Origin: a virus
Lineage: Duplodnaviria > Heunggongvirae > Uroviricota > Caudoviricetes
Direction: 5' to 3' (one strand)
DNA: 19,930 nucleotides
IMG/VR virus record: IMGVR_UViG_2529292724_000017
Shown: in pieces, positions 1 to 18,700 of the stretch
How the letters are laid out: each line of letters opens with the position of its first letter
How positions within the stretch are numbered: position 1 is the stretch's first letter
Notes under the pieces: model-generated
Database searches by the model: none
Told to the model about the DNA's origin: nothing
The model's input: the letters and a program-made list of their open reading frames with translations, nothing else
Translations under genes and position numbers: made by a program

Positions 1-288
1 TTACCGCCGCAGCCGTTCCGGCTTCTTCCACTGGTAAGTATTTTTCGCGCTCTCCCTCCGTTGTTGAGAACGGCGACGGTATGCCAGCAACTCAAGGACT
101 CTTGTTCGTATGTTGCGCATATCCACGCCGTTAAGCTCAATACCGTCACGGAGCATCACCTCAGCCACCACACGCGCGTAATTTTCAGCGGTGACTGTAT
201 CCGGCTGCGCGGCCTGTTCGTCAGCCAACTGGCTGATTCCACCAGCACAGCGGATTAATCGCAGTATTTCAGATTCGGTCATTATCAT
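1..288 (-). CDS. hypothetical small basic protein (95 aa) immediately downstream of terS; possibly packaging-associated
   Basis: Complete ORF with stop at 1..3; start overlaps terS stop by 4 nt (ATGA coupling); basic C-terminus (RRRSQQRRESAK). No family recognised. Confidence 0.45.
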   Translation of the reverse strand: MIMTESEILRLIRCAGGISQLADEQAAQPDTVTAENYARVVAEVMLRDGIELNGVDMRNIRTRVLELLAYRRRSQQRRESAKNTYQWKKPERLRR

Positions 289-770
289 GCCTGTTTTGCG
301 ACCTCATTCACTACGTCATTTTTTACCATCCGGCTGATAATCTGATTACGCAAATCGTCAATAATTGACTGCACTCTGTTTACTGCCATCGGTTTAAGCC
401 CGGCATCACGTGCCAGAATATTGGGGAGTTTTGCCAGTTCCTCGCTTACGATTTCCCCCCATATAGCCATCTCTTTTCGCACATCATCGGCGGGTATGAG
501 TTGCGCCGTTTCCTGTTCGAACCTGAGGCGCTCACGTTCGGACTGATACCAGGCCTTACGGTCATGTGGCTCCATTTCTTCCAGTGATGCCGGAACGGGA
601 AGATCAAGAAAACAGGTCAGAATGTCAGTCACCCGATAGAGTTTTAGCTTGTCATGCCCTCCGGCTGGCTGGATGTTTTTCAGCCTTGCCGCCGCAGTCT
701 GACGACATATTCCCGCTATCGCCGCCAGTTGATTAATGTTCAGCATCAGATTTTTCAGTTCTCGATCCAT
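285..770 (-). CDS. terminase small subunit, lambda Nu1-like (N-terminal winged-HTH DNA-binding domain)
   Basis: N-terminus MDRELKNLMLNINQLAAIAGICRQTAAARLKNIQP...YRVTDIL resembles lambda Nu1 as recalled (KKQLADIFGASIRTIQNWQEQGMP...YDSAAVIKWY); later ERERLRFEQE resembles Nu1 ERHRLTRAQAD. Start placed at the internal ATG (Met30 of the track ORF, whose own start at 857 is TTG). Confidence 0.6.
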   Translation of the reverse strand: MDRELKNLMLNINQLAAIAGICRQTAAARLKNIQPAGGHDKLKLYRVTDILTCFLDLPVPASLEEMEPHDRKAWYQSERERLRFEQETAQLIPADDVRKEMAIWGEIVSEELAKLPNILARDAGLKPMAVNRVQSIIDDLRNQIISRMVKNDVVNEVAKQA

Positions 771-922
771 ACCCGCTCCAGAATGTTTTAAACATGCATC
801 TTGCGAACAACTTTCAGAAGAGGTCAAAAAATGCGCTATATGTTGAGCATAAAACAAGCAAAATTAACATGCTAAAAATAAAAATACTTAAAATTCAATA
901 CAATGGAAAGATGATGATGACG

Positions 923-1022: not shown

Positions 1023-1027
1023 TGTTG

Positions 1028-2629
1028 TCATGCTCCACTCGATTTCAGTAATCCGCGATAGTCGAGGGCCGCGACACCTGCATCTATGCGCACCTTCCAG
1101 GCGACGCCATCAACAGTAAATCCCTCCTGCTCCTCAAGATATGGCGTATCAATACCATCAAGATAAGCGACCTCTATCGTGTCCATCCCCTTCGCCGCTG
1201 CCACATACCACTCCTTGTTATTGGCTTTATCAAGACGCGGCTCGACGATAACCTCTGCCATATCTTTCACCACGTTAATGATGCCGGGGTTCTGATTGAT
1301 AGTGCCTCCACCATCAATCGGAAAGAGTGATGACGATGACAGAATGGCGCGATGTGCGGCAGACTCCAGCGCAGCAGGGACCAGAACAAAAGCGGGGGTA
1401 ATATTCAGGGAGTCGCCGTTGCCATCCTCCTGTAATCGCATCAGCTTACGGGCTTCGTTAAGCCCCTCCATGTCCATATCCTTCGCAATAAGATTTTTAT
1501 GATCGGCATGGAATAACGCTTTACCATCCGTAAATTTGCCGTTGCTGGTTAACAGAAGATAAACCAGATTACCTACTGTTCTGGCGGCCGCACGCCCCAT
1601 CGCCATGGGGATTGTAGTTAACTGGGTCAGGTCATCGTTGATAATGGCCTGACGGGTAACAGAAAAAATATTACCGTATGTGGCCAGCGCAATAGGTACA
1701 CCTTTATCGCTGGTGGTGATGTATTTATATTCCGCACCTTCCGGTACTTTATCCAGCTTTGAAAAACCATTCAGACCAACGCGCTTTGCTTCATGAAAGT
1801 TTGAAAGCGATCCGGTACACGTCCATTTCTGGAACGTTTCGCCGCTGTCCTGCCAGCCTTTCAGCACTGATTTTTCAGCACCACCAGCCAGAATATGAGA
1901 AAAATCGCTGCTGCTGTGTGTGAAAGCTGCATTAACGACCTGCGAGCGATTTAAAAAATTGCCAACACTGATACCACGATCAGTTAGTGATGCCTGGGCC
2001 ATTTCAAAAAGGCTCATCATCGCGTAAGGATTTCCCCGCTCTGGGCGTTCATACCCGAGACGAGAATAAAGCCCCTGACGAATTGCATCGCCTGTTATGT
2101 TCCCGTTACCGGCATAAATATGAGTCGGGATATTTTTATTGGATGGCGTGGACTCGCGCCCCAGCTCGTTCAACAACTTTTCACGGGCCATCTCCGGTGT
2201 ACATGATGCATCCTCCAGGCACGCCATTTTGATCCCGTCGTAACGACTGCCGAACAGGCTAAACACTTCACTTATTCCGTTGATGCGCTTCTGTTCATTA
2301 CCAGCAATATTTGCCGCTCCCTGTGGCGGTGTAATCATTCCTTTAATGGTTTCCGGCATATGTAAAAAATCTCCTGTGCGTTTCGATTCAATTCGCGCCA
2401 TTACTCTGACGGATGGCAACAATTCATCAGCAAAACCGTGCTTAAGGCATTCTTTCCCATCCATCCAGGTTTCATCCTCCAGCATGGCGGTAATTTCCTG
2501 TGCTGATTTGCCCGTTTTTCTGGCATAAGCAGGGATTAACACGGTTTCCACCTTATCCAGCAAATCAGCATAATCACGCATATCGCCAGCATTTCCGCCA
2601 GAGATCCCCCACGGTTTATGGATCATCAT
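1028..2629 (-). pseudogene. ClpP-like prohead protease / HK97-like major capsid fusion, 3' portion only (gene interrupted by nested element)
   Basis: Colinear with the intact 638-aa paralog (4671..6587) from MMIHKPWGISGG onward; homology stops exactly at the 12-bp repeat 2618..2629; the first six codons of the track ORF lie in insert DNA. Confidence 0.75.
2618..2629. repeat. 12-bp direct repeat ATGGATCATCAT, left copy (putative att core / junction)
   Basis: Identical 12-mer at 12935..12946; capsid homology ends and begins exactly at the two copies. Confidence 0.65.
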
Positions 2630-2696
2630 GCAATACATTGAAATCATCCTACTGATAAATAAGATTAAAAATCACAATACAGATACGTTTGAGCTT

Positions 2697-2721
2697 CATT
2701 GCAATACGCATTGCAATACAC
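2697..2721. repeat. tandem repeat cattGCAATACgcattGCAATACAc (arm-type-like sites) near left junction; GCAATACA also at 2630..2637
   Basis: Same motif tandemly repeated at 12784..12807 immediately upstream of the integrase start. Confidence 0.5.
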
Positions 2722-2965
2722 GGTTGCTGGGTGATTTCAAAAGATGAATGCTGCGAAGGATGGAAATTTGGGAACTAGGTGGTGAATAGCACAACAAAAA
2801 ATCAGAATTCTACTAGCTTAAAATGATGCAAAAAGCATTCGTGGCATCGCAAGCGCTGTACAATTCGTTCTATAATGAAGAAAATTTCTAACAGACTTTA
2901 TCATTCAAAGGTGGAGGAGATGACAGCAATGCAACATGCATCACGCTCATACTTGAATTGTAAAG

Positions 2966-3010
2966 CTATCGTTAGAATCACAGCCTTTTTGTTCCGCTGA
3001 TCTAACGATA
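2966..3010. promoter_or_regulatory. perfect 10-bp inverted repeat TATCGTTAGA / TCTAACGATA with ~25-bp spacer, about 60 bp upstream of the cargo operon
   Basis: Seen directly; AT-rich intergenic region preceding ORF 3070. Confidence 0.3.
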
Positions 3011-3069
3011 AAACTAGTGGTAAAAGGTATATTTTTTAATTTTTCAGACGCTGGCGCGGGGTAATTAAA

Positions 3070-3372
3070 ATGAAATTTGTAAATATACGGTCATCCGAGT
3101 TGCCTGAAATAGATACCTTTGTAAAAGAATGTATCAACCAAGGACAATGGACTCTTTTCAAGGCCGAGAAGGGTGCAGTTAATGATAATAAAGTTGCTTT
3201 TTTTCTAAAGGCTGGCAAAGATTTCTTTGCATTAAATAACAGAGGAAGTGTTATCTCTGTATTTCAATCATTAGATTATAATCTTGAAATGAATGAGGTA
3301 ATTCATTTTTCAGATATTCCTAAACCTGAATCGTTGAGCAATATTGCTAGCTTAGGATTTGCTAGAGTTTAA
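3070..3372 (+). CDS. hypothetical protein (100 aa), first gene of AT-rich two-gene cargo cassette
   Basis: ORF in AT-rich block; 18-nt gap to the next gene, which has a good SD; no family recognised. Confidence 0.55.
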   Translation: MKFVNIRSSELPEIDTFVKECINQGQWTLFKAEKGAVNDNKVAFFLKAGKDFFALNNRGSVISVFQSLDYNLEMNEVIHFSDIPKPESLSNIASLGFARV

Positions 3373-3390
3373 TATATAAGGATATGTACG

Positions 3391-4281
3391 ATGGGATTAA
3401 TATCTGGAAATACACATTGGGTATTATTTTTACCTTGTGAGCACCAACCAGAAGATCGCCATGTTCAAGATTTAGTTCATGGCGTCTTTTGCTTAGAATC
3501 CTCAGGTATACAGCCATCTAATATTAGCATATATATTGATGGCCAAAATAGAGCCAACTTTAATAAGTTAATTTCGATTGCAACCCAACATAATTATACT
3601 ATCAAGCCTACATCTGAATTTTTCACCGACTGCGATACAAATAGTTATGAAAATCTAGTTATGTTTGTGACCGGACACGGAAGTATGAATGGTTTGGACT
3701 CTGCGCCGATCATAACCCCATACCGTTTATTGGACAGGTTAAAAAACACTCCTGTTCTCAAGCAAGCAATCGTTTATCTTGGTCAATGTTTCGCTGGTGT
3801 TTTCAACTACTTACCTGCTGGGCAGCGTAAGAGAGGTGAAGATGCCGACCCCGATGTCATTCTTATCGGGGCTACGAGTCTTCATGAAAGTTTGAGTAAT
3901 CCAACAACGGAAAATATTAATGGTATAGATTTTCCTTGGGTTGCAAATCAATTTTTATATCATGTATTTAAGTGGATATCATCCCCGAATGATATCGATG
4001 GGGATGGAAAACATACAGTAATTGACTCTTATAAGTATGCTGGAATCTCATCAAACATGACCAATCGTAGAATGAAGATAGGTTCTTTTGTAGCTTCGGT
4101 AGACTTGCATGAGCAATGGAATACTGCAAAAAAAGATCATGAAGCTAACTTGGCTGATCCACAAAAACTACTCCGTTATAGAGCATTAGATCAGCAATAC
4201 TATGAAAAACTGAACATTAACTATATTCATCAAGAGTGCTGGATATTAAATTCTGTACCTGCACAATCTGTTGAATTCTAA
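3391..4281 (+). CDS. caspase-like (clan CD cysteine peptidase fold) protein, 296 aa
   Basis: Hydrophobic strand then His-Gly (LVMFVTGHGS, H96) and hydrophobic strand then Gln-Cys (AIVYLGQCFAG, C133) about 37 residues apart, the pattern of caspase/clan CD catalytic dyads; SD AAGGA 8 nt upstream; EF-hand-like loop DIDGDGKHTVID at residues 201..212. Confidence 0.6.
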   Translation: MGLISGNTHWVLFLPCEHQPEDRHVQDLVHGVFCLESSGIQPSNISIYIDGQNRANFNKLISIATQHNYTIKPTSEFFTDCDTNSYENLVMFVTGHGSMNGLDSAPIITPYRLLDRLKNTPVLKQAIVYLGQCFAGVFNYLPAGQRKRGEDADPDVILIGATSLHESLSNPTTENINGIDFPWVANQFLYHVFKWISSPNDIDGDGKHTVIDSYKYAGISSNMTNRRMKIGSFVASVDLHEQWNTAKKDHEANLADPQKLLRYRALDQQYYEKLNINYIHQECWILNSVPAQSVEF

Positions 4282-4285
4282 TCCT

Positions 4286-4456
4286 TTACTTTTTTGAATA
4301 GATTGCTGCAAGTGCCGTTTTGAGGTCGTAATTTCGGCACTTGCAACTGCAACCAGAAATAGGGCGAACGTTTGACAAACGTTTAGCTATAGTCTGCCGA
4401 TGAAATCCAGTCACTTCCGCCAACTCACTTAAATTTAGAACTATCTTTTTCATCAT
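4286..4456 (-). pseudogene. truncated Nu1-like terS remnant (56 aa, DNA-binding domain only)
   Basis: Not in the supplied ORF track (below its length cutoff); translated by hand from the minus strand as MMKKIVLNLSELAEVTGFHRQTIAKRLSNVRPISGCSCKCRNYDLKTALAAIYSKK, which matches the N-terminal HTH region of the 285..770 product and Nu1; about a third the length of the full gene. Confidence 0.5.
4307..4345. other. perfect 11-bp inverted repeat TGCAAGTGCCG / CGGCACTTGCA (17-nt spacer) between convergent genes
   Basis: Seen directly; lies just 3' of the cargo operon stop and inside the terS remnant; no flanking T-run. Confidence 0.35.
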
Positions 4457-4567
4457 AATTACCCTTCAGATGTCGAACAAATAACATACAATCCATCATC
4501 TTTTCCACTTTTATAAAGTTTTACCTAATAAAATTCAGTTAGTTAGCGAATGATGATGATGTCTATA

Positions 4568-4668
4568 AAATTCAAAAACTAGCCGTTTCCCGCGATGCCG
4601 CCGCCCCGTGGCAGGCATCCCCGCCGGGAGTACCTTTTAAAAAAGGGCAGCATCTGCCGCCCTCCTGT
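4568..4668 (-). promoter_or_regulatory. conserved element, copy 2 (diverged), between capsid stop and truncated terS; terminator-like hairpin GGCAG-cat-CTGCC plus T6 on the minus strand, about 4638..4664
   Basis: Shares the aaaaactagcc...ccgccccgtggcagg...ccgggag core with copies 1 and 3. Confidence 0.45.
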
Positions 4669-4670
4669 CG

Positions 4671-6587
4671 TCATGCCGCCCCGCTCGACTTCACCATGCC
4701 CCGATAATCCAGCGCCGCCACGCCAGCATCGATACGCACCTTCCATGCAATACCGTCCACAGTGAAGCCCTCCTGCTGTTCCAGATACGGCACGTCCATT
4801 CCATCCAGATATGCCACCTCGATAGTGTCGGTGCCTTGCGCTGCAGTGACGTACCACTCCTTGTTGTTGGCCTTGTCCAGTCGCGGCTCAACCACTACCT
4901 GCGCCATATCCTTCACGACGTTGATAATGCCTGGGTTCTGGTTCAGCATACCGTTCTGGTCTACCGGGAACAGCGAAGATGATGACAGCACAGCTCGATT
5001 GGCTGCGCCTTCCAGCGCGGCAGGTACAAGGATATAGGCTGGGATAACATTAATAGGATCGCCGTTCGCATCCTCCTGCAGACGCATAGCCTTACGGGCC
5101 TCATTGAGTCCGTCTGTATCCATCCCTTTAGCGATGAGGTTTTTATGGTCGGCGTGGAACAACGCTTTACCATCTGTGAATTTGCTGTTGGCGGTCAGTT
5201 GCAGGTAGACCAGATTGCCAACCGTTCGTGCGGCGGCACGCCCCATTGCCTGTGGAATGGTCGTGAGCTGGCTCAGGTCATCGTTGATAATGGCCTGGCG
5301 TGTAACAGAGAAGATGTTTCCATAGGTGGCCAGCGCGATCGGCACCCCGCTGTCGCTGGTAGTGACATATTTGTATTCAGCACCTTCCGGGACTTTATCC
5401 AGTTCTGAAAAACCATTCAGACCGACACGTTTAGCCTCATGGAAATTCGACAGAGAACCGGTCTTTGTCCACTGCTGGAAAGTTTCCCCGCTGTTCTGCC
5501 AGCCAGTCAGCACCGACTTTTCAGCACCACCAGCCAGGATATGAGAGAAATCACTGGTGCTGTGCGTAAATGCCAGGTTCACGATCTGCGAGCGATTCCC
5601 GAAACCACTGACGCTGATACCACGATCCACCAGCGAAGCCTGCGCCATTTCAAACAGACTCATCATGGCGTAAGGGTTTCCCCTTTCGGCGCGTTCGTGA
5701 CCCAGACGGGCAAAAAGCCCCTGGCGGATAGCATCGCCGGTAATGTTGCCGTTACCTGCGTAAATGTGCGCGTTACTGGTTTTATCCGATGGGGTCGAGG
5801 TCTTACCCAGTGCCGTCAGCAGCATGTCTTTTGCTTTTTCAGGCGTGCAATCCACATCCTCCAGACACTGCATCTTGAGAGAATCATGCTTGCCGCCGAA
5901 CATGGCAAACAGATCCTTAATCTCGTTGATGCGGTTCTGTTCCGGTACAGCGCTACTGGTGGAACCTTTCGGGCTGGTGATCATCCCTTTAATTTCTTTT
6001 GGCATATGCTCAAAATCCTCAATTCGTTTTGACTCAATACAGGCCATTGCCCTGACGGCGGGTAACAATTCGTCAGCAAAACCCTGCGCTACACATTCGC
6101 GGCCATCCATCCATGTTTCATCCTCCAGCATTTCCGCCAGTGATTCGGCTGATTTTCCCGTTTTGCGTGCATATGCCGGGATCAAGACACTTTCGACTTT
6201 ATCCAGAAGTTCGGCGTAGTCGCGCATGTCGTTGGCGTTCCCACCAGAGATTCCCCACGGTTTGTGAATCATCATGAGTGCGTTTTCGGGCATAACGATA
6301 CGGTCGCCAGCCATTGCAATAACTGACGCCATAGACGCGGCGAGACCGTCGATCTGCACTGTAATTTTTGCCGGGTGTTTATTCAGAAGGTTATAGATAG
6401 CGATGCCGTCAAAAACATCGCCACCGGGTGAATGAATGTGCAGGCTGATATGGGAGATATCGCCTAGGGCTTTCAGGTCTTCGGAGAACTGCTGCGCCGT
6501 AATACCCCAGCCGCCGATCTCTTCGTAGATGCTGATATTGGCGCTGGTGCCATCGCTGGCCGCTTTGATGGTGTACCAGCCTTTCAT
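4671..6587 (-). CDS. prohead protease (ClpP-like, serine motif GLAASMAS) fused to HK97-like major capsid protein, 638 aa, intact
   Basis: N-terminal ClpP-like block (IHSPGGDVFDG...GLAASMASVIAMAG); long C-terminal region typical of major capsid proteins; colinear with both fragments of the interrupted paralog. Confidence 0.7.
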   Translation of the reverse strand: MKGWYTIKAASDGTSANISIYEEIGGWGITAQQFSEDLKALGDISHISLHIHSPGGDVFDGIAIYNLLNKHPAKITVQIDGLAASMASVIAMAGDRIVMPENALMMIHKPWGISGGNANDMRDYAELLDKVESVLIPAYARKTGKSAESLAEMLEDETWMDGRECVAQGFADELLPAVRAMACIESKRIEDFEHMPKEIKGMITSPKGSTSSAVPEQNRINEIKDLFAMFGGKHDSLKMQCLEDVDCTPEKAKDMLLTALGKTSTPSDKTSNAHIYAGNGNITGDAIRQGLFARLGHERAERGNPYAMMSLFEMAQASLVDRGISVSGFGNRSQIVNLAFTHSTSDFSHILAGGAEKSVLTGWQNSGETFQQWTKTGSLSNFHEAKRVGLNGFSELDKVPEGAEYKYVTTSDSGVPIALATYGNIFSVTRQAIINDDLSQLTTIPQAMGRAAARTVGNLVYLQLTANSKFTDGKALFHADHKNLIAKGMDTDGLNEARKAMRLQEDANGDPINVIPAYILVPAALEGAANRAVLSSSSLFPVDQNGMLNQNPGIINVVKDMAQVVVEPRLDKANNKEWYVTAAQGTDTIEVAYLDGMDVPYLEQQEGFTVDGIAWKVRIDAGVAALDYRGMVKSSGAA

Positions 6588-6796
6588 TTTTCCCCTTCCG
6601 TTACAGCGAAGCCATTTTCATCAAGCCATGCGTTGACTGCGTGCCGGACTACCTGTGCCACTCCGGGCAATGGCTGGACAGGAAGATTTTTCAGATGATC
6701 GTTGCGGTATTGCTTAAGGCGTACAACGGTTTGCGCGTCCAGATGTACGGAGCCGCCTTTAGTCTCGCCAGTGTTTAAATCGTTAATGTCACTCAT
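6584..6796 (-). CDS. small conserved protein (70 aa) translationally coupled to the protease-capsid gene
   Basis: Homolog of 13258..13464 (MS.INDLNTG...GGSVHLDAQTV.RLKQYR...PLPGVAQ.VRHAVN.WL..NGFA); ATG at 6794..6796 with SD GAGGA; 4-nt overlap with the capsid start. Confidence 0.6.
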   Translation of the reverse strand: MSDINDLNTGETKGGSVHLDAQTVVRLKQYRNDHLKNLPVQPLPGVAQVVRHAVNAWLDENGFAVTEGEK

Positions 6797-6941
6797 GATG
6801 TCCTCTACTGTATAAGTAAACAGGTTATGATGATTGATCACCAAAAGTGGTAAGTGAACAATTTTTTATCTGAAAAATAGATTTATGATGAAAAAAAATT
6901 TTTGTATGGTCTTAGATTGGAATAAACAGAAAGGTTAAAAA
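6797..6941 (-). promoter_or_regulatory. putative promoter region of the small-protein/capsid operon, with conserved TTACCACTTTT box
   Basis: Boxes aaaagtggtaa and aaaaatagatt recur at 13500..13550 upstream of the paralogous operon. Confidence 0.3.
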
Positions 6942-7655
6942 ATGGATCTCACTCGTAATGACGAACTCCTTTTGAATGATGCAGCTAGACGCTCATTTCG
7001 GGATATGGCAGACCAGGATTATCTCTCAGCTCGTCTGTGTTATAAGCACAAATTGAATTTTCAATTTTTATGGCTTTCGCAACAAGCCGTAGAGAAATAT
7101 ATTAAAGCGATTTTACTTTATAATAGAGTTCCAGTATTAAAATTAAATCACAATTTAAACAAAGGGCTGGCAAAGATTAAAGAAATCCCATATCTTGAAT
7201 TAGACCTAGATGTAAAAAGTGAGCGATTCATAGATTATCTCAATGAGCAGGGCCCAAATAGATACTTCCAAAACACTATGTATACCGAAGGCTTTGAAAT
7301 TATAACCTTGGATAGAACCATCTGGGAATTAAGAAGATACTGCAAGCCACTAAACTACTCAATTACTAACCCAAAAGGTGAAGTGATAGAAATGTTAGAA
7401 CATGAATTGAGTAGCATAAAAAATTCGAAGTCGAGGCCTTATCATACGTTCAAACTATTTGGAGGTTACTTAGAAAAAAGATTAAAAGATAATAAATTCA
7501 ATCAGGGCGACATACTTACATGGAAAAATTTATTTTTTGGAAGAAATAAAAAAAATGCAATTAGAATTGGAAGATCAATGCATGTAACTCATCCAACTCA
7601 TTATATGTACCCAAATGCAACGGAAATGCTCAGTCGTTTCTTTAAAATAAAATAA
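6942..7655 (+). CDS. HEPN-domain protein (237 aa), single-gene AT-rich cargo
   Basis: N-terminal region matches the HEPN pattern as recalled: helix, then SQQAVEKYIKAILL, then NHNLNKGL, then ...NRYF (compare hQQAvEKalKAll ... tHdL ... RYP); SD AAAGG; opposite strand to backbone. Confidence 0.5.
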   Translation: MDLTRNDELLLNDAARRSFRDMADQDYLSARLCYKHKLNFQFLWLSQQAVEKYIKAILLYNRVPVLKLNHNLNKGLAKIKEIPYLELDLDVKSERFIDYLNEQGPNRYFQNTMYTEGFEIITLDRTIWELRRYCKPLNYSITNPKGEVIEMLEHELSSIKNSKSRPYHTFKLFGGYLEKRLKDNKFNQGDILTWKNLFFGRNKKNAIRIGRSMHVTHPTHYMYPNATEMLSRFFKIK

Positions 7656-7743
7656 TTACATTCCAATTTTATTTACCGCTGTTAAATAAGTAAGGTATAT
7701 CTTTATTTATCGACATTGATAATCATGAAAGAGTATATCTTTT

Positions 7744-7960
7744 TTGCCGCACCTAGCGCATTTCTCACCGCACTTTCATCCCGCGCACTTAGGTGCGCAA
7801 TCCAACATGCACCGTACAGCCATTAAAACCAGTAATGGGGCGGGTTTGCAGGTGATTAATGCCAAACCGCGCACTTTCTTCGTATATACATGGAAAAAGT
7901 GCGGCAAGTGTATGTTTTATGAGCATTTCGCGCATCACGCGCATTTCTTGCCGCACTTTT
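7744..7960. repeat. iteron-type origin region: repeats of (T)TGCCGCAC / CGCACTTT in both orientations plus palindrome GCGCACTTAGGTGCGC
   Basis: Five or more copies within ~220 bp immediately downstream of the replication gene ending at 7965. Confidence 0.5.
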
Positions 7961-7964
7961 CAGG

Positions 7965-9374
7965 TTAAATTATCGTGATATCTCCTGAATCATCGATAAA
8001 GATAATATTCTCCCTAACGAGTTTATCAAGCCAGCGTTTAAAACCTTTGCGGCCGTTCTCTCCAAACAGAGTGGTAATATCATCACGTATAACAGAGACA
8101 TTACACGGTTCACCTTTGGCTTTTCGGCTCCGGATTGACTGCCAGAGTGCAGCGTGGTTCCCAGTCAGGTGCTTGATATCAGCAAGTTCCGGATCAGGTT
8201 CTCGTGCCTCTCGTGGCAGGTCCTGCACCACCAGCGACGAAATAAGCTCACCATCACGATCTGTGAACAATTCGATCGGACGCAGATCGAATGCGGCCTG
8301 TTTCGGCTCCTCCGCATCTTTCATCTTCGTACAGGTCAGGATTATCGCCCCACCATCCCCCTCGCGCCGGACATTGAACTCTGCATCGAGCGCAGCCCTG
8401 AAAGCACTGGAACCACGTGCGCCTTTGGTATCGTCTTTTCCTGAATGATGCACCACCAGCAACGTGGCGCCAGTCTCACGCTTGATGACGTCGCAGCCTT
8501 CAATAAACGCCCCCATGTCACGAGCATCGTTTTCATCGTTACCACCAAAGCACCGCGCTAGAGTATCTATGACAATCAGGCGAACCGGCTGCCCCGTTTT
8601 GGACTTAACGTCACGCGCAGCTTTGATCATCTCCTGCATTTCCTCACGGCGAACCGGGAAAACCGGACGGTTTACCAGATACAGATTATTTAGTTTCACA
8701 CCATGTTTTTTCTCCCACGCCTTTATTCGCCGCGGAACGCCAATACCACCTTCACCTACTACGTACATCACAGCGCCGGCTGATACCGACTTCCCCGCCC
8801 ACTTCATCCCGGCTGCAACGTGACAAGCCCAGGACACCGCCAGAAAACTTTTATACGAACCGCTCGGGCCGTAGATACTGCTCAGGCTGTTAGCGGGAAG
8901 ATAACTTTTTAACGTGTAATCCTGCTCCTGATCGTACCCATCAGAGCCCACGCTTAAAGGAAGGCTGTGCCGCAGTGACTCCTCTCGCACAGAGACTTCA
9001 ACCTGTTCACGCAGACGAGAAAGATATTCCCTCCAGTCCTCAGGCTCATGGTCGGGGATTCCTTTATACAATTTGGCATCCTGCACGCCAGCCAGCGCCA
9101 GCTTTTCAGCAATGTTATTAATCTGGATAGGCTTTATATTCCCTGCCAGGTAAATCCGCACGGCACGACGGCCATCATCCACAATGCGCAGGTTATCCAG
9201 CTCTGCCAGTTGTTTTGGCCCAAGGTAAACAGGAGGAGTGGTATCTTCGGCAATCTGTTTACCAAGCCCCTCTTCCCAACCCTTCGCATGGGCGTATGCT
9301 TCTGACCCGGCAAAAATAACTGCCTCCGTGAATTTTTCTTTTGGCAGGTGTTTCAGATTCGGTGCGTTTTTCAT
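7965..9374 (-). CDS. replication initiator: primase-associated N-terminal domain fused to RepA/DnaB-like RecA-fold ATPase (469 aa)
   Basis: Walker A GPSGSYKS and Walker B-like LIVIDTL; first ~125 aa shared with the 14246..16063 product. Confidence 0.65.
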   Translation of the reverse strand: MKNAPNLKHLPKEKFTEAVIFAGSEAYAHAKGWEEGLGKQIAEDTTPPVYLGPKQLAELDNLRIVDDGRRAVRIYLAGNIKPIQINNIAEKLALAGVQDAKLYKGIPDHEPEDWREYLSRLREQVEVSVREESLRHSLPLSVGSDGYDQEQDYTLKSYLPANSLSSIYGPSGSYKSFLAVSWACHVAAGMKWAGKSVSAGAVMYVVGEGGIGVPRRIKAWEKKHGVKLNNLYLVNRPVFPVRREEMQEMIKAARDVKSKTGQPVRLIVIDTLARCFGGNDENDARDMGAFIEGCDVIKRETGATLLVVHHSGKDDTKGARGSSAFRAALDAEFNVRREGDGGAIILTCTKMKDAEEPKQAAFDLRPIELFTDRDGELISSLVVQDLPREAREPDPELADIKHLTGNHAALWQSIRSRKAKGEPCNVSVIRDDITTLFGENGRKGFKRWLDKLVRENIIFIDDSGDITII

Positions 9375-9694
9375 TTCAGCCCCTTATCCCATCCGTCAGA
9401 TCCAACACTCAGCGGCAGAGAAGAGCGCAGAGCAGCGATTTTTTTACGCACGTTTTCTTTTACGGTCTCCTGCCACTCCCTGCTTTCCTCAGGGAGATAA
9501 ATAAATTCTTTTCGGAACCGGTACTCAGAAAAAATACACTCATGTGAATACCCATCCCGGACATACGTAATACGGCTATCCGTTATGCATGTGACAGTAA
9601 TTTTTTCTCCGCGAGAATCTTTCCAGCGACTGTTAAGCTCGATTTTTGGTTGAGCGATGCCCTCAAGCTGAACCTGATTGAATTTTTTAATCAT
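9371..9694 (-). CDS. conserved hypothetical protein (107 aa) translationally coupled to the replication gene
   Basis: Homolog of 16060..16359 (shared block TV..I...R.Y..RDGYS); 4-nt overlap with downstream start. Confidence 0.55.
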   Translation of the reverse strand: MIKKFNQVQLEGIAQPKIELNSRWKDSRGEKITVTCITDSRITYVRDGYSHECIFSEYRFRKEFIYLPEESREWQETVKENVRKKIAALRSSLPLSVGSDGWDKGLK

Positions 9695-9698
9695 GAAT

Positions 9699-9878
9699 TT
9701 ATTCCTTGTCGGTAGCCGTTAAACCGTATGCTTCAGCAGCCTGACGAACTGCCTGGATAAAACCTTCCGGTGTGGCCACGATTTCGTCCGGACGAAGGCG
9801 GCGCTCTGTAACCTGACCGTTTTTAACCGTCACCAGTACGCGGATCTCGTAATCAGCAGGTAAGGCGGAGTTATCCAT
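9699..9878 (-). CDS. hypothetical small protein (59 aa)
   Basis: Internal ATG of track ORF 9699..10004, overlapping the stop of the upstream Ash-like gene by 8 nt; clean composition ([16 protein letters not shown]...). Confidence 0.4.
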
Positions 9879-10158
9879 GGCGCACCTCCATTGGCACAGC
9901 TTCATTGCTGTAAGGATCGCTACCCAAGATGCTCCATAGGGTGCGATGTTCAGGATCCATAAACGACACTGAGAGCGGGCTTTCTGTTCGGATTTTGGCG
10001 GCAAAGGTCAAGTCCCAGCCGCAGAACTTTGCACGGGCAGTATCTTCAGTGTCTGCAATGGTGCGCAGAACTATCGGGAGACAAGAGTGACCTCGCGGCG
10101 TGCCAAGGAATAGCCATGTAAATTTTGGGCGAGTTTGGGTATGCTGTTGATCAGCCAT
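9871..10158 (-). CDS. Ash/Icd-like small protein typical of P4-type elements (95 aa)
   Basis: [12 protein letters not shown]...[17 protein letters not shown] resembles the KFTW(R/L)F...E.EAR pattern of Ash/Icd-like proteins as recalled; ATG at 10156..10158 with SD GAGGT; first gene of the replication operon. Confidence 0.45.
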
Positions 10159-10190
10159 AACTGTTACCTCAACTAACGGTTTGTGGTTAG

Positions 10191-10235
10191 ACGTCCCGTG
10201 AGTGGTTCCAAGCACTTCCGGGACGTTGCTTTTTT
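10191..10235 (+). terminator. conserved hairpin ACGTCCCG-(20 nt)-CGGGACGT followed by TGCTTTTTT, terminator-like on the plus strand
   Basis: Paralogous hairpin at 16919..16952 has ACGCCCCG/CGGGGCGT, a compensatory base-pair change; both sit ~40 nt upstream of an Ash-like start. Confidence 0.45.
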
Positions 10236-10251
10236 CACGTCAAGCGTGATA

Positions 10252-10296
10252 ACGTACGTACGTAATAGCAACATCCTATGAGGTTACGTACGTACA
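10252..10296. promoter_or_regulatory. two palindromic operator-like sites (ACGTACGTACGT and TACGTACGTACA) flanking the promoter of the RHH gene
   Basis: Two near-identical palindromes ~33 bp apart; the second overlaps the RHH start codon; region lies between divergent genes. Confidence 0.45.
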
Positions 10297-10487
10297 TGTC
10301 AACAATAAAACGAGATAAAACACCCAAAGGAGAGGGCTTGTCTCCGACATTCCAAATCCGAATAAGTCCTGAATTGCGCCAGCAGATGAATGAAGCTGCT
10401 GAGCGTGAGGGAGTAAGTCTTGGTAATTGGCTTAAAGGTCTGGCTAGAAATGAACTTATTAAGCAAGGAATTGAACCTAAAGGTTAG
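10296..10487 (+). CDS. ribbon-helix-helix (Arc/CopG/HicB-type) DNA-binding protein, candidate repressor of the inner element
   Basis: FQIRISPELRQQMNEAAEREGVSLGNWLKGLARNEL fits a beta-strand plus two helices RHH; divergent from the replication operon; start placed at the second ATG (track ORF begins 10278). Confidence 0.55.
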   Translation: MSTIKRDKTPKGEGLSPTFQIRISPELRQQMNEAAEREGVSLGNWLKGLARNELIKQGIEPKG

Positions 10488-10540
10488 TTTTCACAAGCAC
10501 TCTTTGATTTTTTCAGTAAAAATTAAATTAAGGAAATTCT

Positions 10541-11251
10541 ATGGATGATTTATATACACCATCTGAATATTTTATGTTCGTAGAGAAATTTGATCATTAC
10601 TTCCCACGAAAAAGCCCTTTTAACTCATTATTATTCGAGTTCAATTATAGATTAGAAGATATAGTTGTTTTTCATCGCTTTGTTATCAACACCTATTCAA
10701 AAAATAAAAAAGCAATTGATGTACAATATAATAAATTTAATTTTCTTGATGATAAACAAAAAAATTCCCTTTCTGATGACGAGTATGAAGCGTATCAACT
10801 CAGGTTTGCAAGGCATATGGAATACATTAACCATCAAACTGATTTGAATGAAAAAGCGTCTTACATTGCTAACGATAGTGTCGTTATAAACTTATGGGCC
10901 ATGAATGAACAATATATGACTAGAGGATTGGCCAACCTAATATCTCAAAAAGAAAATAAAAATTTAAATGAAGTTAAAACGCCTTACAAATGGGATACAA
11001 TCAAAAGTAAATTCCTGTCATATGGAATCAACTTTGAGACATTGCCATCTTATGATGACATTAATGAATGTAGAGTACTGAATAATAAAATAAAACATCT
11101 GAACATAGTAGATTCTGGTTTAGAAGTTTTCCCTCCCTTCAAAGGTAAGCTTAACGAATCACTTACTGGCATGGCCTTTCCTCTTCAAAAATATATCATA
11201 GGCTCTCATCACTTTATAGGAATGCTATTAGAAGAGTGCTCATTAAAATAA
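10541..11251 (+). CDS. hypothetical protein (236 aa), AT-rich cargo downstream of the RHH regulator
   Basis: SD AAGGAA; 53-nt gap after the RHH gene with no obvious terminator; no family recognised. Confidence 0.55.
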   Translation: MDDLYTPSEYFMFVEKFDHYFPRKSPFNSLLFEFNYRLEDIVVFHRFVINTYSKNKKAIDVQYNKFNFLDDKQKNSLSDDEYEAYQLRFARHMEYINHQTDLNEKASYIANDSVVINLWAMNEQYMTRGLANLISQKENKNLNEVKTPYKWDTIKSKFLSYGINFETLPSYDDINECRVLNNKIKHLNIVDSGLEVFPPFKGKLNESLTGMAFPLQKYIIGSHHFIGMLLEECSLK

Positions 11252-11297
11252 ACGCATGGCAACGTATAATTTATCGCTTAATACGTTGCCATATCTC

Positions 11298-11543
11298 TCA
11301 TTTATTTTTATCGAACCAATCTCCTTTAATCCAAGCTTGCATCTCTGAGAGCCGGTAAGCAACTGCTGACGGCCCAATTTTGATTCGCTTAGGAAATTTT
11401 CCTTCCTGTTCCATGCGCCAGCGCGTTGAGTTAGACAACGTAGTCATAGCCCGGCATTCAGGTTCGCGAATCATTCTGTCAAGGTCAGGCATGTACTGGA
11501 GATCTTCTTTTTTCACAACGGATAACATAGCCATATCAGGCAC
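11298..11543 (-). CDS. alpA: AlpA-family small DNA-binding protein (transcriptional regulator/excisionase-like)
   Basis: IREPECRAMTTLSNSTRWRMEQEGKFPKRIKIGPSAVAYRLSEMQAWI matches the AlpA HTH pattern; SD AAGGAG; start overlaps the integrase stop. Confidence 0.65.
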   Translation of the reverse strand: MPDMAMLSVVKKEDLQYMPDLDRMIREPECRAMTTLSNSTRWRMEQEGKFPKRIKIGPSAVAYRLSEMQAWIKGDWFDKNK

Positions 11544-12771
11544 TCCTTTTCTTAATTACTTTTACTGTATTTTCTTCACCCACCAGCCCATCAAGGTAGT
11601 CAACCCATCGGTCCAGTGCTTCTTGCTTTTGAGGGATATACTTGCTGCGGTTATAGACTCCGGCCACGCCCTTTATGGTATGCCCCAGCAGCTGCTCTAC
11701 GACCATAAAATCAACGCCCATATCGTTAAGGCTTGTCGAGAACGTTCGTCTCAAATCATGTAATGACCAGCGTTTTTCATGTTTCAGAGAGATAAAGTTT
11801 GTGCATCCCATCGTACTGACGGTTGAATCAGATTTCAGTTCGCCAAATATGTAGCCTCTCCTTTTAGTCTCTTCGTGCAGGTTTACGATCCACTGGCGCA
11901 TTTTTTGAGGAACGGGGCGAATAATTTCTTCGCCGTTTTTACTGTGCTCTTTAGGTACTGTCCAAATCCACTTATCGAAATCCCACTCATCCCATGTAGA
12001 TAAACGCGCCTCACTCAGCCTGCAGCCAAACACGAGACACAAAATCGCCATCCTTTTTTTGTAATTCATTACACGGGTTTTGCCTTTACCATGAAAGTAC
12101 ACTCCCCACAGATCGGCGACGTAGCTTTCCTCAAGTAGCCGCTCTCTCTTGTTCTGATACTTACCGATATCACCAGGGCTCAAATCATCAAGCACATTGC
12201 ACCGCACATACTGGCGCACCCGGCAGTATTTGAAGATCTGCTTTAACTCAATCAGCATTGCAGCAGACTGAACCGGCGCGATTTTCTTTATGCGGTCGAA
12301 GCACTTGATCCAGTCTGACAGACCGCATTTCTCGACAGGAAACCCGCCGATGTAGGGAAAAATGTATCTCTCATAACGGCGATAGAGCCGTAAAGTCTCT
12401 TTGCGCTTTTCCCTGGCATAGTTATCAAACCAGTAATCGATAGCGTTCTTCACAGTTACTGGAGTGAACAGGTTCTCTTTGGTGAGTTTGTTCTCTATTC
12501 GTGGGTCGAGTCCCTGAGATAGCCATGCCCGGCACTCGTCCCTTTTCTCTCTGGCCTGTTTAAGGGTCATATCTGGATACTTGCCTAACGTCATCCAGAC
12601 GGGGGCGCTTTGTCGGCCGGAATGTCTGAAGAAATACACAAAGCTCACAGTGCCACTAACGCTCACTCTGACAGACAGTCCACGACCATCTGCCACCATC
12701 TTTTGACGCGGCTGGGGTTTACCATGTAAGGCCTTTAACGCCTTGTCGCTTAACTTGTTCTCGCCCGCCAT
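11536..12771 (-). CDS. int: tyrosine site-specific integrase, P4-type (411 aa)
   Basis: Length and motifs of phage integrases (C-terminal LHDLRRTF, LLGH, then Y in VYNRSKY); paralog at 18701..19930. Confidence 0.8.
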   Translation of the reverse strand: MAGENKLSDKALKALHGKPQPRQKMVADGRGLSVRVSVSGTVSFVYFFRHSGRQSAPVWMTLGKYPDMTLKQAREKRDECRAWLSQGLDPRIENKLTKENLFTPVTVKNAIDYWFDNYAREKRKETLRLYRRYERYIFPYIGGFPVEKCGLSDWIKCFDRIKKIAPVQSAAMLIELKQIFKYCRVRQYVRCNVLDDLSPGDIGKYQNKRERLLEESYVADLWGVYFHGKGKTRVMNYKKRMAILCLVFGCRLSEARLSTWDEWDFDKWIWTVPKEHSKNGEEIIRPVPQKMRQWIVNLHEETKRRGYIFGELKSDSTVSTMGCTNFISLKHEKRWSLHDLRRTFSTSLNDMGVDFMVVEQLLGHTIKGVAGVYNRSKYIPQKQEALDRWVDYLDGLVGEENTVKVIKKRSA

Positions 12772-12783
12772 AAAACCTCATTC

Positions 12784-12807
12784 TGCAATACACATTGCAA
12801 TACACAC
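12784..12807. repeat. tandem repeat TGCAATACAcatTGCAATACAcac immediately upstream of the integrase start
   Basis: Same motif as 2697..2721 at the other end of the inner element. Confidence 0.5.
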
Positions 12808-12934
12808 TTAACTGCAACGCCGAAAAACAGTAGAAAAGCAATGCAAACAACACCTCTTCTTTCTTCATAATTAACAATAAGTTAATGAATGAATACGGTT
12901 CTTCATGCGTACCCATGAGGTAGTGTGAAGGATA

Positions 12935-12946
12935 ATGGATCATCAT
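12935..12946. repeat. 12-bp direct repeat ATGGATCATCAT, right copy (putative att core / junction)
   Basis: Identical to 2618..2629. Confidence 0.65.
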
Positions 12947-13258
12947 CATGGCGTTCTCCGGCATCACTACACGATCGCCAGCCATTGCGACCACCGAAGC
13001 CATTGAAGCCGCAACACCATCGATATAAACCGTAATGTCTGCCGGATGATTCCGTAGCAGGTTATAGATGGCGATGCCTTCAAACACATCACCACCTGGT
13101 GAATGGATCCTCAGATTGATATGTGAAACATCGCCAAGGGCTTTCAGGTCTTCCGCGAACTGCTTTGCAGTAACACCGAAGCCGCCAATCTCCTCATAGA
13201 TAGATATATCCGCCGCTCCACGAACATCCGCCGCCTTAATGGTGTACCAGCGATTCAT
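12935..13258 (-). pseudogene. ClpP-like prohead protease / capsid gene, 5' portion only (N-terminal ~108 codons)
   Basis: MNRWYTIKAADVRGAADISIYEEIGGFGV...GVAASMASVVAMAGDRVVMPENAMMMIH is colinear with the N-terminus of the intact paralog; the track ORF 12719..13258 reads on into insert DNA after the repeat. Confidence 0.7.
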
Positions 13259-13464
13259 TATTCCCCCACCGATGCAAAACCATTCTGATTAAGCCAGGTG
13301 TTTACGGCATGTCTGACAATCTGCGCCACACCTGGTAATGGTTTGTCAGGATGATGATTTATATGGTCGATCCTGTACTGCTTAAGGCGCATAACGGTCT
13401 GCGCATCCAGATGAACGGAACCACCCCTGATATCGCCCGTGTTCAGGTCATTAATACAACTCAC
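13258..13464 (-). CDS. small conserved protein (68 aa) preceding the interrupted capsid gene
   Basis: Homolog of 6584..6796; probable GTG start with SD AGGAAG. Confidence 0.55.
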   Translation of the reverse strand: MSCINDLNTGDIRGGSVHLDAQTVMRLKQYRIDHINHHPDKPLPGVAQIVRHAVNTWLNQNGFASVGE

Positions 13465-13562
13465 AGTAACTTCCTCTTACTGACTAAACTGTGCACATTA
13501 TTGATCGATAAAAGTGGTAAATAAATATATTTCTATCATAAAAATAGATTAATCAGATTCAG

Positions 13563-13589
13563 ACACAAAAAAGCCGGAGAAAATCCGGC
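13563..13589 (-). terminator. intrinsic-terminator-like hairpin GCCGGA-gaaaa-TCCGGC followed by T6 on the minus strand
   Basis: Seen directly. Confidence 0.4.
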
Positions 13590-13776
13590 ATAAATACCCC
13601 GCCATCTGAACACGTTTTGACACTGGCAACTCCACCTGGCAGGTGAAAAACAGATTTATTTATATATTTCAATTAATTGCAAGCTGGTCTAATGACAGGG
13701 AGAAAAAAATATTGTACAGGTGAAAACAGAAATAATTTTTAATTATCAATAAATTATCAAACATGCTGCCGCCGCC

Positions 13777-13873
13777 ATGAAAATGCAAAAACCAGCCTTT
13801 TTCCGCGACGCTCCCGCCCCGTGGCAGGTCACTACACCGGGAGGACCCATAAAAAAGCCGGATTGCTCCGGCT
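13777..13873 (-). promoter_or_regulatory. conserved element, copy 3 (near-identical to copy 1 over ~75 bp) with terminator-like hairpin GCCGGAgcaaTCCGGC plus T6 on the minus strand (13850..13873)
   Basis: Direct-repeat copy lying upstream of the small-protein/capsid module rather than downstream of the capsid gene. Confidence 0.45.
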
Positions 13874-14005
13874 TCTGTTACTCGTTGCTTAAAACGGTAT
13901 GTTATCCCCGTACGGATCATCATTCCCCGCCTGTTGTTTTGGTGTGCTTCGCTGTCATAGGCTTTATCTCACAGCAGTAAATTAAAATTTTTGCGTTTTA
14001 ACCCT

Positions 14006-14232
14006 TCACCTGTTCACCTTTTGATATTTTCTCTTTTAATTCATAATGTTAAGGGGTGAACAGTTTCACAAAAACTATTCACCAACTGTTCACCACTGTT
14101 CACCCTTGAAGCTCAATAAACAATCAAAAAGGTGAACAGTGAATAGTTTGGTGAACAGTTCATAAATAACTGCTCACCCTATAATATACTGATATAAAAG
14201 ATATTTATGACAGGGTGAACAGTGGTGAACAG
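14006..14232. repeat. iteron-type replication origin: eight or more copies of GGTGAACAG / CTGTTCACC in both orientations with AT-rich spacers
   Basis: Copies near 14009, 14055, 14086, 14096, 14131, 14151, 14214 and 14224; immediately downstream of the primase-helicase gene. Confidence 0.65.
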
Positions 14233-14245
14233 TTATTCCATAAGT

Positions 14246-16359: not shown

Positions 16360-16365
16360 GATTAT

Positions 16366-16882: not shown

Positions 16883-16901
16883 AGCTGCCTCGATACTCTC
16901 G

Positions 16902-18092: not shown

Positions 18093-18144
18093 GGTTAGAT
18101 CTCTGTATTAGTGGATGGGTGGCGGCTGTGTGCCGCCAGCCTGA

Positions 18145-18333: not shown

Positions 18334-18375
18334 AATTCCCCCTTTGATATTTCTTAAAGAGTTATTTGGTGTCCT

Positions 18376-18678: not shown

Positions 18679-18700
18679 TTCTAAAAAATCGCAAAAAAAA

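Follow-up and report, generated by a model that had tools for sequence, protein, structure and literature searches.

The locus analysed here raises the question of how one satellite element came to lie inside the protease-capsid gene of a related one. The window, by which we mean the whole stretch of 19,930 nucleotides, had been read in an earlier note as a nested insertion made by a site-specific recombinase. It is very probable that the inner element is a gram-negative helper-embedded PICI (HE-PICI) of site group C:CLP_protease:110, inserted by its tyrosine integrase into the protease-capsid gene of a sibling PICI. HE-PICIs, including this site group, were defined by Tommasini, Mageeney & Williams (2023; NAR Genom Bioinform 5:lqad036; PMC10111431). 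The split gene and its junctions are arranged as follows.

1028..2629, minus strand: 3' fragment of the outer protease-capsid gene, with the C-terminal part of CLP_protease and with Phage_capsid_4 (Pfam)
2618..2629: att identity block at the junction with the 3' part, attR in gene orientation; the minus strand reads ATGATGATCCAT, encoding Met-Met-Ile-His (exact match, homology end)
12935..12946: att identity block at the junction with the 5' part, attL in gene orientation (exact match, homology start)
12935..13258, minus strand: 5' fragment of the outer protease-capsid gene, with CLP_protease (Pfam); its reading frame runs into the insert to 12719

String matching within the window places ATGGATCATCAT exactly at 2618-2629 and 12935-12946, in agreement with the perfect 12-bp direct repeat noted earlier. 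The repeat cannot be extended on either side (ggttt before and gcaat after the first copy, ggata before and catgg after the second). About 12 repeated 12-mers are expected by chance in 20-kb shuffles, and the repeat alone is unremarkable; what makes it significant is its location, at each of the two breakpoints of a single split gene, and the external evidence given below. Removal of one copy together with the intervening DNA (10,317 bp) yields an intact 637-aa ClpP-protease/major-capsid fusion gene. The minus-strand join of 1028..2629 and 12947..13258 is an uninterrupted 637-aa reading frame that reads ...PENAMMMIHKPWGISGG... and is colinear with the paralog of the inner element at 4671..6587 (...PENALMMIHKPWGISGG...), with 79% amino acid and 73% nucleotide identity; the in-frame rejoining proposed from the sequence is thereby recovered. 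Homology to unsplit genes ends at 2629 and starts again at 12935, exactly at the boundaries of the 12-mer. Both outer fragments are annotated as pseudogenes in RefSeq, the 5' fragment lacking a C-terminus and the 3' fragment an N-terminus. The CLP_protease match of the 5' fragment stops near profile position 123 and covers residues 31-119 of the 179-aa ORF, and the read-through tail from 12934 down to 12719 adds no protease-domain match. No database record uses the start codon of the 539-aa ORF of the 3' fragment, for which gene callers use a 536-aa version. The core overlies the catalytic-histidine codons of the protease, which is a small addition to the published account.

The insert has the following features.

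2630..12934, minus strand, same orientation as the split gene: inner element, assigned to HE-PICI site group C:CLP_protease:110, 10,317 bp including one core copy
3070..4281, plus strand: two cargo ORFs of 100 aa and 296 aa, with no Pfam or PADLOC match
4671..6587, minus strand: intact ClpP-protease/capsid fusion gene, with the equivalent of the site at 6264-6275
7965..9694, minus strand: replication module, with a DUF4222 protein (9371-9694) and a RepA-like AAA_25 helicase (7965-9374), from Pfam and RefSeq names
11298..11534, minus strand: AlpA, excisionase/regulator family (Pfam Phage_AlpA, E = 3.5e-14)
11536..12771, minus strand: tyrosine integrase of 411 aa, apparently intact (Pfam Arm-DNA-bind_3 and Phage_integrase)

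The integrase, in which the R/HxxR/H/Y signature is visible in an alignment, starts 163 bp from the right repeat, close to the earlier estimate of about 165 bp. From int (11536-12771) and alpA (11298-11534) the gene order continues through HicB-like and other ORFs and through Icd-like, DUF4222 and RepA-type helicase genes to the capsid fusion gene, which is the published PICI zone order of integration (int, alpA), dynamic, replication and late genes. As in HE-PICIs, the element interrupts a phage-type late gene, has the same orientation as that gene and supplies no replacement end for it; its int, alpA, helicase and capsid genes are all on the strand of the target. Its own capsid gene reads ATGATGATTCAC at 6264-6275 and differs from the core at two positions, both synonymous, as had been noted. 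The T that it has in the overlap region is predicted to block recombination there. The 296-aa cargo protein accompanies C:CLP HE-PICIs in E. coli and in Klebsiella-type contexts. Besides HEPN and HicB, Pfam and PADLOC searches gave no matches for the cargo ORFs, and we therefore make no claim of a defence system.

The arm-like repeats noted earlier beside both junctions were confirmed: GCAATAC(A/G) occurs at 2630, 2701 and 2713 near one and at 12785 and 12797 near the other. Positions relative to the core centre are given below.

2630-2637: single half-site abutting the core, at -10
2700..2722, minus strand: doubled (T/C)GTATTGC motif on the distal side, with half-sites at -93 and -81
12784..12806, minus strand: doubled TGTATTGC motif on the integrase side, candidate arm-type sites, with half-sites at +140 and +152 in the rebuilt attP

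In published HE-PICIs, two co-oriented doubled tgTGTATTGCantgTGTATTGCa motifs lie about 81 bp upstream and 132 bp downstream of the attP centre (PMC10111431). The half-site centres of the inner element, at -93/-81 and +140/+152, correspond to this spacing, and its downstream doubled motif begins about 134 bp from the centre. The spacing of the doubled motif is identical in all five elements that were measured (the inner element and L002, L004, L011 and L012), and the distances of these GCAATACA repeats from the core are conserved base for base. Beside the core, the attP carries the conserved ends of the element itself, TTGC on the left and TATCC on the right. The excised attP junction TTGCATGATGATCCATTATCCWTCACACTACCTCATGG gave 0 matches in viral contigs and 0 in metagenome contigs. 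Because a control pattern found the element in the metagenome contigs, in integrated form only, this result reflects the assembled bacterial DNA and not an absence of the element. The attP junction is predicted to read ...GATTTCAATGTATTGC-ATGATGATCCAT-TATCCTTCACACTACC..., and the junction of the restored gene ...GAGAACGCCATG-ATGATGATCCAT-AAACCGTGGGGG....

Precise empty sites exist. The gene is unsplit across the rebuilt junction in 184 closed E. coli genomes, and one locus (L018) has the same outer PICI at the same chromosomal place with a single 12-mer and identical flanks. Elements of the inner type were also found in the protease-capsid genes of lambdoid prophages in four genera. In Klebsiella, Kluyvera and Rahnella this site is occupied by elements whose integrases are 93-95% identical to the inner one, and the same core was found at the same codons in K. 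pneumoniae prophages of two different backgrounds and in Kluyvera and Rahnella prophages, where TerS, TerL and portal genes were confirmed. In an E. coli prophage, an HE-PICI of 97-98% identity uses the same site, and an integrase of 74% identity sits at the same codon, with CTGATGATACAT as target. The free phages mEp213 and Kp4865-4 carry the target gene unsplit with the exact 12-mer. An integrase scan of species-representative genomes returned two loci, both informative, and only two because its peptide patterns were strict. Among 14 metagenome junctions, 10 were on-target and 4 off-target, the latter with a shared block as short as 7 bp. The relatives of the integrase use this site and not tRNA genes.

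These recurrent junctions bear on two other origins of the repeat. Siblings share homologous genes, and in strain LR-31 a deletion fuses inner position 9923 to outer position ~16661; recombination between tandem or co-resident sibling satellites, with the 12-mer as the end of a shared stretch, might therefore be considered. However, identity is confined to 12 bp on both sides, the ends of the insert are not capsid-gene sequence, and the gene of the inner element does not match the core at exactly this place and is only 73% identical in nucleotides overall. Moreover, unrelated phage genes and off-target sites without homology show the same junctions. The limit of identity and the recurrence at unrelated sites effectively refute homologous recombination, to which we give hardly any credence. 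Transposon-like insertion with a 12-bp target-site duplication would also leave a perfect short direct repeat on both flanks, but the element encodes a tyrosine integrase and AlpA and no transposase, and the same repeat sequence is found at every on-target site and is part of the attP of the element itself. The shared block shrinks to 7 bp in our junctions and to 5-6 bp at catalogued sites (PMC10111431). Because the block shortens off-target, it behaves as an identity block and not as a duplication of fixed length; with no transposase and a variable block length, transposition is effectively refuted and is the least credible origin of all. Formation of attL and attR by a tyrosine integrase, as opposed to homologous recombination, is supported by the empty sites, the break of homology at the 12-mer, the insertions in four genera and the conserved motif spacing.

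Site-specific integration would then proceed as follows. The integrase would recombine an attP, consisting of the core ATGATGATCCA(T) between two doubled TGTATTGC motifs, with an attB that lies in ClpP-type prohead-protease/capsid fusion genes and spans the Met-Met-Ile-His codons of the catalytic-histidine motif. Its usual targets are late genes of lambdoid prophages, such as those of mEp213-like phages; the outer satellite would have been hit as well because its homologous gene has the identical 12-mer, and insertion would have split that gene into the two pseudogene fragments. The insert brings no substitute for the lost gene end, and the outer gene should therefore be restorable by precise excision alone. 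The int and alpA genes are intact, and their products presumably still catalyse excision in this strain.

Integration into a structural gene of a related element, as the earlier note proposed, is upheld. Its reading as parasitism of a sibling satellite needs a qualification: because the usual target is a phage gene, the insertion into a satellite was probably incidental and not selected, as was also suggested for such insertions in the HE-PICI paper (PMC10111431). An adaptive nesting, in which the inner element exploits the sibling as a second helper through replication and transcription in cis and control of the capsid gene, forming a three-tier chain of phage, satellite and satellite of that satellite, is unlikely. 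It would agree with the shared orientation of the inner element and the outer late gene and with the persistence of the nested pair in several ETEC-type genomes. Against this, the integrase group of C:CLP_protease:110 is the most promiscuous one, to which 24 of the 28 catalogued off-target events belong (PMC10111431); in our metagenome junctions, 4 of 14 were off-target. Only 6 of 5426 closed E. coli genomes contain integrase DNA of the inner element, although 184 offer an unsplit outer gene. The left junction is present in 11 closed genomes and is 100% identical in all of them, which fits one ancestral, vertically inherited event. Only 3 of the 11 have kept both an intact integrase and the right junction; most have lost one or the other by deletion or IS insertion, suggesting that many nested copies are immobilised. 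Strains with an intact nested pair are E. coli 90-9280, ETEC-2264 and TW10828.

The wider form of this idea is a three-tier state in which the inner element uses the induction, replication and late transcription of the outer PICI in cis, sibling recombination is a regular route to hybrid PICIs, and the attB at the catalytic histidine is a strategy; we likewise regard it as improbable. If it were true, the LR-31 fusion would be an example of the hybrid route, and the mosaic right end of the window possibly another, and an attB at the catalytic histidine would give access to any element, phage or satellite, in which the ClpP-type prohead protease has stayed functional.

More generally, satellites inserted in late genes of a helper phage link their excision to the capacity of that helper to form capsids, a parasitism in cis as opposed to the classical one in trans, and a satellite within a satellite would add one level to the chain of parasitism.

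Outside the insert and the split gene, the window contains the following parts of the outer element.

1..857, minus strand: late end of the outer PICI, with a phrog_1561 protein and a DUF1441/small-terminase-like protein (PHROGs, RefSeq)
13258..16686, minus strand: outer PICI, with a phrog_4934 protein, a D5-type primase (14246-16063), a DUF4222 protein and a 106-aa protein
16684..19930, minus strand: right-hand module, with a 396-aa ORF, AlpA (18145-18501) and the integrase (18701-19930)

This gene content fits a gram-negative PICI (~10 kb; int, alpA, primase and late genes). The att site of the outer element itself is not visible because the window stops at the start of the integrase. The late and replication part is located at tRNA-Ile2 beside mug in closed genomes. 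The right-hand module is 99% identical to an EcCIDi14-type PICI module, has an integrase module of the type found beside abgR, and differs from its counterpart in closed genomes with the nested pair; CP024240 matches the window only to 16950. The right third of the window may be a recombinant or an assembly mis-join. If the stretch of 15.8-19.9 kb is genuinely linked to the nested pair, this would point to recombination or inversion between the loci at tRNA-Ile2 and abgR; if not, the shared primase repeat would have led to a mis-join.

Compared with known systems, the inner element shows no essential difference from the HE-PICIs of C:CLP_protease:110. It shares with them the attL/attR identity block, atgatgatccat, located near codon 110 of the CLP_protease profile, the doubled TGTATTGC motif on both arms, the order of int, alpA, replication and late genes, and the co-orientation with the target late gene; its integrase, judged by the 93-95% identity and the listing in the paper, falls in the same subclade. 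A PICI as host element instead of a prophage is a variant already covered there, with 24 E. coli cases inside the PICI at tRNA-Ile2 (Fig. 5A), and the element of the window (contig AQDG01000055.1) is in the supplement as Eco599.10.C_CLP_protease_110 with identity block "atgatgatccat"; the copy in a near-identical closed genome is listed as Eco7709.10... (CP024240.1/2403977-2393661) (PMC10111431). Because the element and its nested arrangement were all published in 2023, the window is a confirmation and not a discovery (PMC10111431). The element surrounding the insert in this contig was left unmapped in that paper, and its EcCIDi14-type integrase end differs from the "single genotype" reported for invaded PICIs (PMC10111431), maybe as an assembly artefact. 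Besides the position of the core, our small additions are the decay of most nested copies in closed genomes and a right third that may be recombinant or mis-joined.

Experimental excision was reported for 11capE, in capsid gene E, and not for the C:CLP group (PMC10111431). The founding HE-PICI, 11capE / 50icd in the lambda-like capsid gene E of E. coli NRG857c, shares with the inner element a homolog of the split gene, the lack of a replacement end and the integrase clade. It differs in its target gene and site (E:Phage_cap_E:80, with a 10-bp block) and its host, a 50-kb prophage, and in that its excision and replication were measured experimentally. Classical gram-negative PICIs such as EcCICFT073 and EcCIDi14, reportedly treated by Fillol-Salom et al. 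in 2018 in ISME J, which is reference 6 of PMC10111431, resemble the inner element: they measure ~10 kb, have the int-alpA-primase/helicase layout, carry a captured capsid gene and depend on lambdoid helpers. Unlike it, they are inserted in the chromosome, at tRNA genes, fis, hpt, an IS110 transposase gene or next to abgR, and their interaction with helpers is solely in trans. Disruption of a gene with no replacement end, restored only by precise excision, is also seen with skin in sigK and with the comK prophage of Listeria. Such regulated gene integrity by excisable elements is discussed in the HE-PICI paper (PMC10111431). In contrast to skin and comK-type elements, the gene split here belongs to a mobile element and not to the cell, and the benefit, if any, would go to the inserted satellite.

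The sequence ATGGATCATCAT was found exactly twice on the plus strand of the window (2618-2629 and 12935-12946), at the two ends of the inserted satellite, the inner element (2630-12934). The earlier note had described a perfect 12-bp direct repeat bordering the insert; the repeat is exact at both sites and, as the neighbouring bases on both sides are unlike between the copies, not extendable. About 12 repeated 12-mers are expected by chance in shuffles of 20 kb, and the repeat is meaningful because it is placed at both breakpoints of one gene, not because it is rare. This gene, the protease-capsid fusion gene of the sibling satellite (the outer element), is split as follows.

13258..12935, minus strand: 5' fragment, N-terminal ClpP-type protease part (Pfam CLP_protease)
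2629..1028, minus strand: 3' fragment, remaining protease part and HK97-type capsid domain (Pfam CLP_protease and Phage_capsid_4)

Without 2630..12946 the fragments rejoin in frame, as had been proposed, into an unbroken 637-aa ORF (...PENAMMMIHKPWGISGG...) which aligns colinearly with the intact paralog (4671..6587; 79% amino acid and 73% nucleotide identity). The inner element's own gene reads ATGATGATTCAC at the core position and indeed lacks an identical target, its two differences from the core both being synonymous. The start of the integrase, estimated earlier at ~165 bp from the right repeat, was measured at 163 bp, and GCAATAC(A/G) copies, the arm-like repeats of the earlier note, are present by both junctions. 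The original observation is thus confirmed. The 5' fragment ORF continues 72 codons into the insert, and this tail gave no extra protease-domain match in Pfam. The insert's distal end (2630-2647, minus strand) holds ATG codons in frame, at 2647 and 2638, with AGGA ahead. Because the insert end supplies these codons, the 3' fragment is an open ORF of 536-539 aa which is called by gene callers, and transcriptional read-through could yield a protease-capsid product truncated at its N-terminus. Since the insert brings no replacement gene end, the gene can be restored only by precise excision. An 80-bp direct repeat (924-1003 and 13777-13856, 95% identical), seen via the near-identical sequence of the closed E. 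coli genome CP024240, brackets the outer protease-capsid gene, one copy lying just downstream and the other ~0.5 kb upstream, and may have a regulatory or packaging-related role.

Each element is organised like a gram-negative phage-inducible chromosomal island (PICI).

Inner element (2630-12934, genes mostly on the minus strand):
11536-12771: tyrosine integrase with arm-binding domain
11298-11534: AlpA
HicB-like ORF and ORFs of unknown function
Icd-like protein and DUF4222 protein
7965-9374: RepA-type AAA_25 helicase
6942-7655, plus strand: HEPN protein
phrog_4934 protein and own protease-capsid fusion
3070-4281, plus strand: two unknown ORFs
Outer element:
small-terminase-like DUF1441 protein
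split protease-capsid fusion gene and phrog_4934 protein
D5-type primase and DUF4222 protein
AlpA and second integrase (only 42% identity to the inner integrase)

The accessory ORFs at 3070-4281, 6942-7655 and 10541-11251 (plus strand) and at 16902-18092 (minus strand) gave no PADLOC match, and no family was assigned to them except for the HEPN domain. The collection has 704 blocks with the 296-aa protein (3391-4281), which accompanies helper-embedded PICIs (HE-PICIs) of the C:CLP type in prophage, PICI and off-target settings. The exact sequence of the 396-aa ORF was found in only two contigs, with three samples listed for each. The L017 region (CAOKTL010000001.1) has another HE-PICI, with a TIR-domain cargo gene, inserted in a prophage's lambda-type capsid gene E; its primase protein is exactly that of the outer element of the window, which illustrates free exchange of PICI modules.

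A search for the empty site of the outer element, using the rebuilt junction with 700 bp per side as a query, matched an annotated uninterrupted gene end to end in 184 closed E. coli genomes (≤98% identity), and matches of the real-junction queries to uninterrupted genes end at 2629 and begin at 12935. An uninterrupted outer PICI (L018) was found at the same chromosomal position, adjoining mug and rpoD, with a single 12-mer whose flanks equal both junction flanks of the window. The exact 12-mer also lies in the uninterrupted targets of two sequenced free phages, E. coli phage mEp213, with flanks identical to those of an E. coli prophage insertion (L043), and Klebsiella phage Kp4865-4.

DNA of the inner integrase was found in 6 of 5426 closed E. 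coli genomes, every time in the nested context. The suggested searches for inner-type elements at other protease or capsid genes, and for the att cores of integrase relatives, located insertions in prophages of Klebsiella, Kluyvera, Rahnella and E. coli, relatives of 93-95% identity having the same 11-12-bp core at the same codons.

Insertions at the same codons, by integrase identity to the inner element
95%: K. pneumoniae; lambdoid prophages of two backgrounds, interrupted in the protease-capsid gene
93%: Kluyvera and Rahnella; same prophage arrangement, right-hand copy ...CCAC
74%: E. coli; prophage gene interrupted at the same codon (target CTGATGATACAT), with the doubled motif likewise upstream of int
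about 97% (nucleotide identity over the element's int-side end, not the integrase alone): E. coli L043; lambdoid prophage, insertion flanked on each side by the same 12-mer

Upstream of the target, the K. pneumoniae prophages encode a holin, a lysin, a DUF1441 TerS, a GpA TerL and a lambda-type portal; ATGATGATCCAT is present at both junctions (protein ...PENTMMMIH/KPWGFAGG...). The core shared in Kluyvera and Rahnella is 11 bp, so strand exchange takes place left of the last base. The L043 element is 97-98% identical to the inner element. Metagenome contigs added ten on-target junctions, nine of the phage type and one identical to the outer gene of the window, as well as four off-target junctions. 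In the Kluyvera element, its own capsid gene reads ATGATGATCCAC (L011, 16612-16623), with all 11 bp of the core retained, so synonymous changes like those in the window's element do not shield every HE-PICI from integrating into itself.

In an attP rebuilt from the element's two ends, distal and integrase-proximal, with the core placed between them, (T/C)GTATTGC half-sites lie at -93, -81, +140 and +152 from the core centre, with a spacing which is the same, base for base, in the elements of the window, Klebsiella, Kluyvera and Rahnella; the element ends adjoining the core are kept as TTGC-core-TATCC. The core codons ATG ATG ATC CAT encode Met-Met-Ile-His, and MMIHKPWG aligns on the MIHQP(M/W)G motif of solved ClpP structures, a motif that holds the catalytic histidine of the ClpP Ser-His-Asp triad. 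As the core overlaps this motif, attB coincides with the protease codons under the strongest constraint, a plausible reason for finding the same 11-12 bp in phages from several genera as well as in satellites with a captured copy of the gene.

Site-specific integration into the protease-capsid gene, as claimed earlier, is borne out by the junctions, the empty sites, the recurrence at the same site and the motif geometry, and int and alpA are intact. The data fit classical tyrosine-integrase recombination, in which the integrase would recombine attP with attB through the 11-12-bp identity block common to both; AlpA is likely the directionality factor. We infer that the inner element is active today and that it depends on a helper.

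The left junction is 100% identical in all 11 closed genomes having it, which fits a single event followed by vertical inheritance. The integrase and the right junction are both intact in only three of these 11. In LR882978 the inner integrase is broken by an IS21-family element (equivalent of window position 12642), and other decayed copies show truncations or an IS1-associated rearrangement. In strain LR-31 (AP027520) a deletion joins inner position 9923 to outer position ~16661, fusing the inner replication and late part to the outer regulatory and integrase part; the 5' gene fragment is lost along with the inner integrase and the outer primase, and the 3' fragment stays as a scar. Recombination between nested siblings can therefore give rise to a hybrid PICI. 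The evidence favours insertion into a sibling satellite being incidental and often a dead end.

Positions 1-15800 of the window equal CP024240 except for three SNPs; divergence is progressive over 15818-16950 and the sequences are unrelated past 16950. Over 16684-19930 the window shares 99% identity with the int/alpA module of EcCIDi14-type PICIs, a module which adjoins abgR in 43 closed genomes, and the outer regulatory and integrase end is unlike that of any closed genome with the nested pair. The outer element may be a true recombinant or an inversion in the strain; a true recombinant would imply rearrangement between the tRNA-Ile2 and abgR loci. A short-read contig may instead have been mis-joined through a primase repeat of ~1.6 kb. 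The primase protein is exactly common to many PICI types, and in a sister draft assembly the module is contiguous with abgR on a contig that stops 171 nt into the primase gene, ~90 bp past the first mismatch of the window to CP024240 (15818). The nested junctions are unaffected either way.

According to PMC10111431 (Tommasini, Mageeney & Williams, NAR Genom Bioinform 2023), HE-PICI integrases form a single clade with 14 target sites in prophage late genes, C:CLP_protease:110 is one of the site groups, and a doubled motif tgTGTATTGCantgTGTATTGCa at fixed spacing is reported. The integrase group of C:CLP_protease:110 is the most promiscuous (24 of 28 off-target events). The supplementary table lists Eco7709.10.C_CLP_protease_110 (CP024240.1/2403977-2393661), which, by the offset derived from the junction matches, corresponds to window 2621-12937, and Eco599.10.C_CLP_protease_110 (AQDG01000055.1/141156-130840), both with identity block "atgatgatccat"; the window matches AQDG01000055.1 at 100% identity in the part compared. 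Placement of the core on the catalytic-histidine motif was not found in the parts of the paper that were read, and a literature search for later HE-PICI work returned only citations. The modest residual value lies in the placement of the core on the catalytic motif, in the pattern of decay and in the possibly hybrid right end. Because PMC10111431 describes HE-PICIs and lists this element, the nested element is already known: the finding is real and correctly read, and it has a published precedent.
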